A stretch of DNA of 64,000 nucleotides, taken from the NCBI RefSeq assembly GCF_011045215.1, contig NZ_CP049201.1. The stretch is one strand, 5' to 3'. The position numbers were made by a program. Positions 9,001-12,000 of this stretch are shown one piece after another (position 1 is the first letter of the stretch; every line of letters starts with the position of its first letter). This DNA comes from Escherichia coli. Lineage in GTDB: Bacteria; Pseudomonadota; Gammaproteobacteria; Enterobacterales; Enterobacteriaceae.

Positions 9001-12000
9001 ATCAATGGCGGAGAAATTTCCGGCCCAATTGTGATTAAAGGACGTTACATTGCCGGTGTTGGCGCAGAATACACTGATGCTCCGGCTTTGCAGCGGATTG
9101 ATGCCCGCGGCGCAACGGCGGTGCCAGGGTTTATTGATGCTCACCTGCATATTGAATCCAGCATGATGACGCCGGTCACCTTTGAAACCGCTACTCTGCC
9201 GCGCGGCCTGACGACCGTTATTTGCGACCCTCATGAAATCGTCAACGTGATGGGCGAAGCCGGATTCGCCTGGTTTGCCCGCTGTGCCAAACAGGCAAGG
9301 CAAAACCAGTACTTACAGGTCAGCTCTTGCGTGCCCGCTCTGGAAGGCTGCGATGTTAACGGTGCCAGTTTTACCCTTGAACAGATGCTCGCCTGGCGGG
9401 ACCATCCGCAGGTTACCGGCCTTGCAGAAATGATGGACTACCCTGGCGTAATTAGCGGGCAGAATGCGCTGCTCGATAAACTGGATGCATTTCGCCACCT
9501 GACGCTGGACGGTCACTGCCCGGGTTTGGGTGGTAAAGAACTCAACGCCTATATTGCCGCGGGTATTGAAAACTGCCACGAAAGTTATCAGCTGGAAGAA
9601 GGACGCCGGAAATTACAACTCGGCATGTCGTTGATGATCCGCGAGGGGTCCGCTGCCCGCAATCTCAACGCACTGGCACCGTTGATCAACGAATTTAACA
9701 GCCCGCAATGCATGCTCTGTACCGATGACCGTAACCCGTGGGAGATCGCCCATGAAGGGCATATCGATGCCCTAATTCGCCGCCTGATCGAACAACACAA
9801 TGTGCCGCTGCATGTGGCATATCGCGTCGCCAGCTGGTCTACGGCGCGCCACTTTGGTCTGAATCACCTGGGCTTACTGGCACCCGGTAAGCAGGCTGAT
9901 ATCGTCCTGTTGAGCGATGCGCGTAAGGTCACGGTGCAGCAGGTACTGGTGAAAGGCGCACCGATTGACGCGCAAACCTTACAGGCGGAAGAGTCGGCGA
10001 GACTGGCACAATCCGCTCCGCCGTATGGCAATACCATTGCCCGTCAGCCAGTTTCCGCCAGCGACTTTGCCCTGCAATTCATGCCCGGAAAACGCTATCG
10101 GGTCATTGACGTCATCCATAACGAATTGATTACGCACTCCCGCTCCAGCGTCTACAGCGAAAATGGTTTTGATCGCGATGATGTGTGCTTTATTGCCGTA
10201 CTTGAGCGTTACGGGCAACGGCTGGCTCCGGCTTGTGGTTTGCTCGGCGGCTTTGGCCTGAATGAAGGTGCGCTGGCTGCGACGGTCAGCCATGACAGCC
10301 ATAATATTGTGGTGATCGGTCGCAGTGCGGAAGAGATGGCGCTGGCGGTCAATCAGGTGATTCAGGATGGCGGCGGGTTGTGCGTGGTACGTAACGGCCA
10401 GGTACAAAGTCATCTACCGTTGCCCATTGCCGGGCTGATGAGCACCGACACGGCGCAGTCGCTGGCCGAGCAAATTGACGCCTTGAAAGCCGCCGCCCGT
10501 GAATGCGGTCCGTTACCCGATGAGCCGTTTATTCAGATGGCGTTTCTTTCTCTGCCAGTGATCCCCGCGCTAAAACTAACCAGTCAGGGGCTATTTGATG
10601 GCGAGAAGTTTGCCTTCACCACGCTGGAAGTCACGGAATGAAAAAAAGACCGTATTAGCTGATTTACGGAAAATATGTACTCCACAAGCGTCAATATCCG
10701 ACGAGGCCTGGGAAAAGATAATGTTGTCTGATGAAAGTAATCAGCAGCACATCCGTGAGGCTATTGTGGCGATGGAACGCAATAACCAGAACAATTACTG
10801 GGAAGCGTTAGGCAAGGTTGAATGCTCGGATATGTAGACGTGAAGCCGCAGCTTCACGTCATACATTTAGCACTTAACGTGAACGTACATCGGGAATAAT
10901 TAAATCACCGCGCAGAACATATGAACCCAGCATCGTCTGCGTCTTCTCGTTAAGCCAACTGACTATGCGGGCGGCCATTTCGTCCAGCGAATATTCTATC
11001 GCCGGAATGGTCGGTATCCCCGGAAGATGAACAGTACCCGCCAGACTAAATACCATAATGTCCTCAGGAACAGATTTATTAAACGCCTGCAATTGCGGTA
11101 TCACCCGCTGCGCTTGCTGTTCATCAGCAACTAATAACGCATTAAAGTTCAGTGTTGAGGCATTATTTAGCAGCTCCTGCAAAGCCACTGAGGAAGAGAT
11201 TGCTTCCATAAAAACCAGATTACGGTTAAAGGGAAGAAAGTTTTTCTCCAGCGCGTGTTTATAGCCCAGTAAGACCTGGTCAGAAAATCCCATACCGTGT
11301 GGGTGGATGAGGGCGATTTGGCGTCTGTTCTGACTTATCAGATAGTTACAAGCGGTTTCAGTCGCGAATATGTGATCGAACTGAATACTGTTAACATCAT
11401 TACCCGTCTCAAGGCAGTCCACCAGTATCACGTTTTCCTGATGAATATTCAGTGGGAAACGCGCACCAATAATCAGTACGTCATCACACAAACCACAGCT
11501 CAGCTCATCAAGGGCGTTCTTTACCTCGGCTTTATTGCTGGCGAAGCGAAGAAGTAGATGTTTTTGATGCTGGCTGAGATGTTTTTCCAGAGCGTAAAGA
11601 TAACCGGTGGTCTGATTAATGTTTTCCTGAGCACAAATTACACCGATACAGCCCGTAGATTGCGTCAGCAGTGACTGCGCAATGACATTGGGACGATAGT
11701 TTAGCTCTTCGACGGCTTTCAATACCGCGAGACGGCTGGCTTCTTTAACACCACGCGATCCGCTCAACACCCGAGAAACCGTCGCTTTTGAAACGCCAGC
11801 CAAACGCGATACATCATTGATAGTAGACATCATTCTCCCCTGACAGAGCGGCCCTGGCTCCCACAATCCTGAATTCCTGTTGGCTTAAATATTAGCCGTT
11901 CGCAGTATAACTGTTTCCGTTTTCTAATGGAAACCGATTTTCCATGGCATCTCAAAACTGAGCTAATAATGATAAAAATGTGAACAGAATCGAAATAATA

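Follow-up and report, generated by a model that had tools for sequence, protein, structure and literature searches.

A probable relic of a YicS-family gene at the left boundary of a 6,977-bp island adjoining adeD in Escherichia coli

Organization of the region downstream of adeD

The window, a stretch of 64,000 nucleotides of E. coli DNA, carries an insertion of 6,977 bp (10640-17616) at the 3' end of adeD. It comprises yicS', a LacI-family regulator gene, genes for PTS IIB/IIC, GH1, IIA and a porin, and a DUF1198 gene. The following features were assigned:

8875-10641, + strand: adeD (adenine deaminase), 588 codons, with a hybrid stop TGA at 10639-10641 (TAA at that position in K-12)
10637-10639, no strand: left junction, AAT common to the recipient (GGAAT followed by AATAAAAAAAG) and the donor (GCAAAT followed by GAAAAAAAG)
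10637-10837, + strand: yicS' pseudogene, codons 32-97 and stop of a 97-codon YicS-family gene
10641-10647, + strand: A7 run, length-mutable (A6 in PE164 and RMDEC465)
10721-10837, + strand: 38-aa ORF of the initial annotation, part of yicS'
10837-10860, no strand: stem-loop with 10-bp arms and a 4-nt loop (extended stem 10832-10866), between the convergent yicS' and LacI-family genes
10874-11830, - strand: LacI-family transcriptional regulator, 318 codons (PGAP), convergent with yicS'
12122-17076, + strand: beta-glucoside/cellobiose-type operon (PGAP annotation, Pfam families)
12122-12436, + strand: PTS IIB
12449-13780, + strand: PTS IIC
13801-15198, + strand: GH1 glycosidase
15195-15497, + strand: PTS IIA
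15697-17076, + strand: LamB-type porin
17095-17547, - strand: DUF1198 gene, a second, donor-type yicN copy
17588-17616, no strand: right island end, 29 nt aligning with the yicN-adeQ spacer and the last adeQ codons
17617-17645, no strand: displaced native adeD/uhpT spacer, AATAAAAAAA followed by the hairpin GCCCGGC-GTCAT-GCCGGGC (uhpT intrinsic terminator)

Joining both flanks of the island restored the empty site of K-12 exactly. The AAT at the left junction is a microhomology beside similar A-runs, and the sequence is donor-specific from 10640 on; this junction was the same in 12 of 12 E. coli alleles. Since the insertion falls within the stop codon of adeD, TAA is changed to TGA, and the 3' end of the gene reads ACGGAATGAAAAAAAGACCG in the window compared to ACGGAATAATAAAAAAAGCCCGG in K-12. 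In K-12, the adeD/uhpT spacer directly adjoins the adeD stop, from which it is separated by 7 kb in the window. The DUF1198 gene is about 79% identical in nucleotide sequence to the genome's own yicN (6862-7314). The length of adeD was unaffected by the insertion, which ends in a gene stub on each side (yicS' and adeQ') and brought a duplicate yicN into the genome.

At the junction, an ATG (10638-10640) overlaps the adeD stop as ATGA. It opens only the hexapeptide MKKRPY followed by a stop codon, and an A8 run would bring yicS' in frame. An in-frame Ade-YicS' fusion was ruled out, as the frames differ by +1.

Identity of the open reading frame

The ORF 10595-10837 on the + strand, reported in the initial annotation as a possible small gene with a peptide of about 38 aa, was confirmed. 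It has 80 codons from a TTG, with an ATG at 10598, and its translation ends in the peptide quoted there. The internal ATG of the 38-aa form, assigned to 10722, was found at 10721-10723. The surrounding 5.5-kb stretch is overlapped by 53 ORFs of at least 25 aa, and an 80-codon ORF alone is not unusual. The significance of this ORF is given by its homology.

The translation of 10595-10837 matched the YicS family profile NF041639 of NCBIfam with 97.6 bits (E = 3.6e-28), which is above the curated cut-off of 45 bits; the 38-aa part by itself reached 53.4 bits. The match spans profile positions 25-96 of 96, and positions 1-24 are absent. No match was obtained by Pfam hmmscan with the 80-aa and 38-aa translations, while database relatives of the fragment bear a precomputed PF27428 assignment. 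In the alignment with the full-length 97-aa gene of E. fergusonii, identity starts at AAT GAA AAA AAG (codon 32), and the sequence upstream is that of adeD and unrelated. The homology to the full-length yicS of K-12 also begins at codon 32. Thus, the frame and its protein-coding origin were correctly recognized, but instead of being an independent small gene the ORF represents a truncated YicS-family gene, of which the 3' two-thirds remain.

The fragment yicS' has neither promoter, RBS nor start codon, and it is without the signal peptide and the initial ~10 residues of the mature protein. The start codon, N-terminal signal peptide and length of about 97 codons that would characterize a complete gene were not found. 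PGAP labels the fragment as a pseudogene ('YicS family protein, incomplete, missing N-terminus'). No promoter was detected at the feature in a promoter scan, and a tblastn search with the fragment revealed no second yicS copy in the window. The carrier PapM-32-1 also retains an intact canonical yicS, located outside the window. Judged by its sequence, yicS' is a fragment of a member of the YicS family and not a functional member. Altogether, 10637-10837 very probably represents the non-functional 3' remnant (codons 32-97) of a YicS-family gene, located at the left edge of an insertion from an E. fergusonii-like relative. The ORF is the leftover of the already known gene yicS for a small secreted protein and not a new gene. 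Its appropriate label is that of a yicS pseudogene fragment bordering an island, rather than that of a candidate for a new small protein; beyond correct annotation, this is of little importance.

The hairpin between yicS' and the LacI-family gene

Directly behind the fragment, a 24-bp perfect palindrome had been described. The inverted repeat is real, with arms of 10 nt each at 10837-10846 (GACGTGAAGC) and 10851-10860 (GCTTCACGTC) that are 100% complementary. It is not a perfect palindrome, as the 4-nt loop CGCA is non-palindromic and the reverse complement differs at 2 positions. The repeat begins with the G that ends the yicS' stop TAG, and the stop of the LacI-family gene is 13 nt away. The 10-bp stem contains 6 G-C pairs and is lengthened by ATGTA / TACAT to 15 bp with one bulged A. 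Folding yielded -21.8 kcal/mol (z = -4.2) for the + strand and -24.2 kcal/mol (z = -4.5) for the - strand. Perfect stems of at least 10 bp with loops of 3-8 nt occur at 6 loci in the window, compared to 0.28 expected from composition-preserving shuffles. Hence, the hairpin is non-random, yet one of several such structures in the window. A REP-like repeat was ruled out, the 24-mer being unique in the window.

E. fergusonii and four Citrobacter-type loci likewise have the hairpin behind their yicS stop. In the six sequences the loops are all different (4-6 nt), and the stems are paired to 91.5% on the + strand and to about 97% on the - strand. One compensatory pair, A-T to G-C, distinguishes Escherichia from Citrobacter; this covariation comprises a single compensatory event in six sequences, and 29 of 500 shuffles attained the observed score. 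The hairpin arrived together with the island. Natively, it is positioned directly after the yicS stop, between convergent yicS and LacI-family genes.

As a stable GC-rich stem-loop at the 3' end of a gene, the hairpin resembles an intrinsic terminator. A U-rich tract 3' of the stem was found on neither strand (+ tail AUACAUUUAGC, - tail UACAUAUCCGA), and a terminator scan of 10300-11200 did not call the hairpin. For these reasons, a role as terminator is uncertain. No Rfam match was obtained in an E-value scan of 10300-12200. Most likely, the hairpin functions in the RNA, where it forms a 3'-end structure that works as a weak factor-independent terminator or holds back 3'-exonucleases. The transcripts served would be that of the LacI-family gene and any entering on the + strand, here read-through from adeD.

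Origin of the island

The segment 10637-17587 of the window is 98.1% identical to the yicS-to-yicN segment of E. fergusonii over 6,953 bp, whereas the identity between the flanking adeD and its E. fergusonii counterpart is only 93.5%. The same gene order was found in E. fergusonii (8 loci), C. freundii, C. tructae and further loci from the search; the species were assigned by the names of cluster members. Typical E. coli lacks the PTS cluster, which in Citrobacter and E. fergusonii belongs natively to the interval between yicS and yicN. Presence of the island is sporadic, its junctions are precise compared to the empty site, and its identity to another species is above that of the flanks, as for a horizontally acquired island. 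One contig, labelled E. coli, with the full-length E. fergusonii-type arrangement was detected in a scan of contigs for the pattern of stop codon plus hairpin. The 98% identity to present-day E. fergusonii ends at 17587, and the last 29 nt of the island diverge in the sequenced loci. Therefore, the actual donor differed in arrangement from the sequenced E. fergusonii genomes.

From the rarity of the island in E. coli and the identity contrast, we infer that an E. coli lineage acquired it from an E. fergusonii-like relative. The chromosomal order native to E. fergusonii and Citrobacter, and presumably to the donor, is yicS, LacI-family regulator, PTS IIB-IIC, GH1, IIA and porin, followed by (nepI) yicN. 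A segment reaching from mid-yicS into the last adeQ codons was probably inserted by illegitimate recombination. The crossover would have taken place at the AAT/A-run microhomology, exactly within the adeD stop, changing TAA to TGA and moving the native adeD/uhpT hairpin 7 kb downstream. The locus is of modest value as a nucleotide-level view of a beta-glucoside PTS cluster entering a minority of E. coli strains.

Variation among carriers and alternative explanations

The island is present in 25 of 5426 complete E. coli genomes. The records of 12 of these 25 carriers were fetched, and the identical junction and the PGAP pseudogene flag were found in all of them. Conservation of the reading frame, with comparison of synonymous and non-synonymous changes, had been proposed as a check for a small gene, to be refuted by a frame not conserved in related genomes. 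This refutation applies, as the frame is not kept among the carriers: three genomes (Combat11I9 class) have a 7-bp deletion that shifts the frame inside the 38-aa ORF, A16 and ETEC6335 have lost the stop by insertion of a single T, and in four genomes, including PE164 and RMDEC465, shortening of A7 to A6 breaks the 80-codon form. Decay is also seen in the substitutions, SNPs in seven alleles of yicS' being mostly non-synonymous (three to one). In the 3' 426 nt of the adjacent LacI-family gene, 13 variable sites (2 amino-acid-changing, 11 not) and zero indels were detected; the comparison of SNP classes between both genes gave p = 0.053 (one-sided Fisher test). By this pattern, the LacI-family gene is under purifying selection. 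About 20 of the 25 carriers retain an intact ORF, which is expected under neutrality at ~2% divergence and is not evidence of function. The fragment yicS' is without a promoter, RBS, start codon and signal peptide of its own, duplicates an intact canonical yicS retained elsewhere in the genome, and very probably decays neutrally.

Against this background it is very unlikely that the region holds an independent small-protein gene, with 38 aa from ATG 10721 or about 80 aa from TTG 10595 or ATG 10598, translated from an adeD read-through mRNA with GGGAAAAG as Shine-Dalgarno sequence. The frame is unbroken in most carriers, products of 38-59 aa are called here by some annotators (P0088, P0091, P0108), and no terminator lies between adeD and the ORF. 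But besides the decay of the frame, the supposed start signals belong to the parent gene. The motif GGGAAAAG (10710-10717), formerly regarded as RBS-like, represents the codons TGG GAA AAG (W-E-K) conserved in every full-length yicS, and is also a poor match to AGGAGG. Together with N3-ATG it encodes W-E-K-I/M-M, kept in K-12, E. fergusonii and Citrobacter, and the equivalent of ATG 10721 is an internal Met codon in E. fergusonii. In addition, the parent protein is secreted by means of an N-terminal signal peptide, which the fragment does not have. A gene coupled to adeD and created by the junction is scarcely credible. Here, ATG 10638 over the adeD stop would be combined with slippage, during transcription or translation, at the A7 run (10641-10647) to give a 67-aa signal-less YicS C-terminal protein (MKKKTVLADL...). 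An overlap of the form ATGA is classical for coupled genes, one added A creates an in-frame ORF of 67 codons, and the length of the A-run varies between strains. However, A8 occurs in none of the 12 alleles, and the A6 variants seen lead to an ORF of 7 codons. The ATG and the A-run are already out of frame in the intact gene of the donor and hence were not selected for a coupling role, and the frame downstream decays in some carriers. Seven A residues are moreover at the low end for productive slippage. Extremely unlikely, too, is a partly active relic, in which adeD read-through and A7 slippage (or a start at ATG 10721) would supply a YicS C-terminal domain that lacks the signal, stays in the cytoplasm and has a new role, while the foreign hairpin at the adeD 3' end would separately alter the stability of adeD mRNA in carriers.

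For the inverted repeat, a binding site at the DNA level in place of an RNA hairpin, such as an auxiliary operator of the neighbouring LacI-family regulator, is highly improbable. Its half-sites TGAAGC / GCTTCA are loosely similar to those of the LacI family, the motif occurs once in the window, and the repeat adjoins the regulator gene. However, the fixed half-site spacing, central CG and DNA conservation of LacI-family operators were not found at 10837-10860. Orthologous loci differ in both the length (4, 4, 6, 4-6, 4 and 5 nt) and the sequence of the spacer separating the arms, while the arms co-vary, which suits an RNA stem and not an operator of fixed geometry. Several changes retain pairing only as G·U, relevant to RNA but not to DNA. 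Furthermore, typical LacI-type operator candidates with central CG are situated in the divergent promoter region and have another sequence, TGGAAACCGGTTTCCA (12053-12068) and ATGGAAACCGATTTTCCAT (11927-11945).

Comparison with known systems

The window copy belongs to the same family and frame as YicS of K-12 (97 aa; NF041639 / PF27428). Residues 32-97 align without gaps, 57 of 66 amino acids are identical, and both conserved Cys residues are retained. In contrast to the complete K-12 gene, the window copy is without codons 1-31 (start, signal peptide, mature N-terminus) and all upstream signals and is flagged as pseudogene. At the DNA level the two are only 80.6% identical, and they differ in location, with yicS of K-12 beside nlpA and the window copy after adeD. 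In the AggR-regulon paper PMC6392122, a passage citing Verma et al. (2018) links YicS, a small protein with N-terminal signal peptide, to biofilm formation and APEC pathogenicity.

Closer similarity was found to the native yicS of E. fergusonii (P0002, 97 aa), with 97.0-97.5% nucleotide identity over the shared 201 nt and the same arrangement of stop codon, hairpin and downstream genes. Unlike the truncated window copy, the E. fergusonii gene is full-length and follows yicL. The hairpin there is closed by a U·G pair and carries the loop CGTC instead of CGCA. The hairpin of the window differs from canonical intrinsic terminators in the missing U-tract on either side; it belongs to no Rfam family and is not a repeated REP-type element in the window. 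It resembles the hairpins of convergent genes, described as bidirectional intrinsic terminators or 3'-stabilising stem-loops, in its GC-rich perfect stem 1-13 nt from two converging stops and in the combination of a retained stem with a variable loop.

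Identity and distribution of the fragment

In the spacer between adeD and the LacI-family gene an open reading frame at 10595-10837 (+) had been proposed in the initial annotation. The ORF listing contains it, with 80 codons from TTG 10595 and a further start at ATG 10598; its first 47 nt lie within the 3' end of adeD (8875-10641). The peptide of about 38 aa, MLSDESNQQHIREAIVAMERNNQNNYWEALGKVECSDM, was quoted correctly as judged by translation, but its internal ATG is located at 10721, one base earlier than the reported 10722. The supposed RBS-like motif GGGAAAAG consists of the codons TGG GAA AAG, kept in every full-length yicS.

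The translation matched the NCBIfam YicS family NF041639 (E = 3.6e-28), spanning only profile positions 25-96 of 96. Starting at residue 24, it was 80% identical to K-12 YicS. YicS is a small signal-peptide protein, and the ORF is a fragment (yicS') of one member of its family. Codons 1-31, including the signal peptide MKPTMLLLITAFFILPGLALA, are missing, as are all upstream expression signals. A link of YicS to biofilm formation and to the pathogenicity of APEC has been cited (PMC6392122, citing Verma et al. 2018).

By sequence search, the fragment stretch was detected in 25 of 5426 complete E. coli genomes (carriers). A 'YicS family protein' feature underlies the match in all 25, according to the feature column of the search. 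PGAP describes it as 'YicS family protein, incomplete, missing N-terminus' (pseudogene) in every carrier record fetched (12/25), some alleles being additionally flagged 'frameshifted' or 'missing C-terminus'. Non-carrier genomes match via adeD only, ending at 10647-10652, and in nearly all genomes the same stretch also matches ordinary yicS, with a DNA identity of ~81-82%. The carrier PapM-32-1 keeps an intact canonical yicS beside nlpA; therefore, the fragment is a redundant second copy.

Insertion site and probable origin of the island

The left junction reads ...GTCACGGAAT|AATAAAAAAAGCCCGGCGTCATGCCGGGC in K-12, ...TCGGCAAAT|GAAAAAAAGACCG in the donor gene and ...GTCACGGAAT|GAAAAAAAGACCG in the window. 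The crossover took place at an AAT common to both, beside similar A-runs. It lies within the adeD stop codon; TAA was thereby changed to TGA, and adeD kept its 588 codons. On the right side, identity to E. fergusonii ends at 17587. The following 29 nt (17588-17616) were not found in the E. fergusonii loci; their counterpart, by alignment, is the yicN-adeQ spacer plus the final adeQ codons of E. coli and C. enshiensis. This implies a putative donor with adeQ still next to yicN, whereas in the sequenced E. fergusonii loci only a degenerate remnant is left. The K-12 sequence picks up again at 17617 with AATAAAAAAAGCCCGGCG.... Joined together, the two flanks give the exact K-12 site with no duplication and no loss. 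Therefore, the insertion comprises 10640-17616 (6,977 bp) and ends in a gene stub on either side, yicS' (left) and adeQ' (right). The left junction was common to all 12 alleles examined, which suggests a single insertion event. Illegitimate recombination at the microhomology would be the probable mechanism.

A protein search yielded full-length 97-aa proteins 95% identical to the fragment, in a cluster named mostly Escherichia fergusonii. Eight E. fergusonii-type loci have the gene order yicL, yicS, LacI-family gene (-), PTS IIB, IIC, GH1, IIA, LamB-type porin, DUF1198 (yicN), adeD, uhpT.

Identity to the E. fergusonii locus L013 (BLAST)
10637-17587, island, 6,953 bp: 98.1%
adeD: 93.5%
uhpT: 97.6%

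Identity of the island's yicS' and DUF1198 genes to the native yicS and yicN of E. coli is only ~79-81%. In C. freundii the yicS/LacI/PTS/porin order recurs, with nepI and yicN after it; C. tructae and another two loci share the yicS/LacI/PTS part. Between yicS and nepI, Salmonella and C. enshiensis have only a GH1 gene and K-12 has nothing. By these gene orders, the yicS-yicN interval has long housed the cluster, which typical E. coli lacks. A minority of E. coli strains carry an E. fergusonii-like copy of it at a new site, the direction of transfer being inferred. This genome has two DUF1198 (yicN) genes with ~79% DNA identity, one native (6862-7314) and one island-borne (17095-17547).

Coding status

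The initial annotation had made its small ORF dependent on a frame conserved in related genomes; among the carriers the frame is not conserved. The 25 carriers were grouped by match length and 12 sequences were checked. A 7-bp deletion inside the 38-aa frame occurs in 3/25, and a T insertion in two others of the 25 changes TAG to TAT, so that the frame runs on through the hairpin. Four of 25 have A6 in place of A7, which breaks the 80-codon form. In the fragment's 198 nt, TCC/TCA is synonymous; ATA/ATG, AAC/AAA, TCG/CCG and GCT/GTT are non-synonymous. Over 426 nt of the neighbouring LacI-family gene, the same seven alleles showed 13 variable sites, only two of them amino-acid-changing, and no indels. 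The contrast of 3:1 in the fragment with 2:11 in the LacI-family gene (one-sided Fisher p = 0.053) comes from few sites and is suggestive. The intact 66-codon frame in most carriers is the neutral expectation at ~2% divergence and is not evidence of function.

Expression could also be imagined by slippage. ATG 10638 shares bases with the adeD stop (ATGA) and begins the short frame MKKRPY*; with one A added to the A7 run it would start a 67-codon ORF, MKKKTVLADL.... This has a low probability, as no A8 allele was found among 12 carrier alleles examined and the donor gene already has the same ATG and A-run, out of frame.

The intergenic hairpin

The 24-bp perfect palindrome described behind the ORF is present as an inverted repeat, but it is not perfect: the 24-mer has two mismatches to its own reverse complement, because the loop CGCA is not self-complementary. 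The arms (10837-10846 and 10851-10860, 10 nt each) are perfectly complementary, and the stem is extended via ATGTA/TACAT with one bulged A. Folding energies are -21.8 kcal/mol (z = -4.2) for the + strand and -24.2 kcal/mol (z = -4.5) for the - strand. Six loci in the window carry a perfect stem of this size, whereas chance would give 0.28; the hairpin is non-random, yet a common kind of feature. In LH50-c (L032, 101-371), where adeD is annotated as a truncated pseudogene, the loop is TGCA and the 24-mer a true perfect palindrome. Five alleles (33F4, PE164, RMDEC465, 06-00048, 19KM1831) lack the bulged A (10861) and have an uninterrupted 15-bp stem that reaches back over the yicS stop and the codon before it.

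The hairpin belongs to the island and occupies the equivalent position in E. fergusonii (GACGTGAAGT-CGTC-GCTTCACGTC) and four Citrobacter-type loci. All loops differ among the six sequences (CGCA, CGTC, GAAATA, CGGT, CTAT, GCATG). The stem is kept, with 91.5% of cells paired on the + strand; four of five mismatches there become G·U on the - strand (~97% paired), and conservation is somewhat better for the strand of the LacI-family gene. In one pair both bases are replaced, Escherichia having A-T and Citrobacter G-C. With one event in six sequences and the observed score reached by 29/500 shuffles, covariation may lend the stem modest support. Within the E. coli carriers examined the stem is invariant.

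The terminator scan did not call the hairpin and Rfam gave no match for it. An inverted repeat might also serve as a protein operator instead of an RNA hairpin. The variable spacer between the arms argues against this, and it is the promoter region separating the divergent LacI-family and PTS IIB genes that contains LacI-type palindromes with a central CG:

11927-11945, related palindrome ATGGAAACCGATTTTCCAT
12053-12068, perfect 16-bp palindrome TGGAAACCGGTTTCCA

These look like candidate operators of the LacI-family regulator. The hairpin itself is best read as an RNA 3'-end stem-loop that would be common to the convergent transcripts. In this genome adeD read-through would also, in the best reading, meet it before any other strong structure, since the native adeD hairpin (17627-17645) is now 7 kb away.

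Other features of the window

1-4465 (-, extending past the start of the window), air/eaeX (3' part), encoding a giant inverse autotransporter adhesin, by PapM-32-1 correspondence
6080-6746, RelE-family toxin and HTH/MqsA-like antitoxin pair between nepI and yicN
22893-25939 (-), three ORFs (319, 154, 435 aa) between uhpA and ilvN

The air/eaeX gene is part of the eilA/eip (T3SS-effector-like) island, which separates nepI from canonical yicS in carrier genomes. The RelE/MqsA-like pair is not in K-12 and has the same position in the Salmonella locus L023. The three ORFs are likewise not in K-12 and gave no match in Pfam; PapM-32-1 has two hypothetical genes of different sizes in this interval.

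Comparison with known systems

As an independent small gene the fragment fails the test of start signals. Compared to the YicS family, it fails as a complete, maintained member. The hairpin does not fit the definition of a canonical intrinsic terminator, because there is no U-tract on either of its strands; it is an ordinary intergenic stem-loop. The pseudogene label of the fragment is already in public annotation, and the finding as a whole is real but ordinary, familiar both as a type of feature and as annotated. What is new is confined to the reconstruction, base by base, of how the island entered the adeD stop codon.
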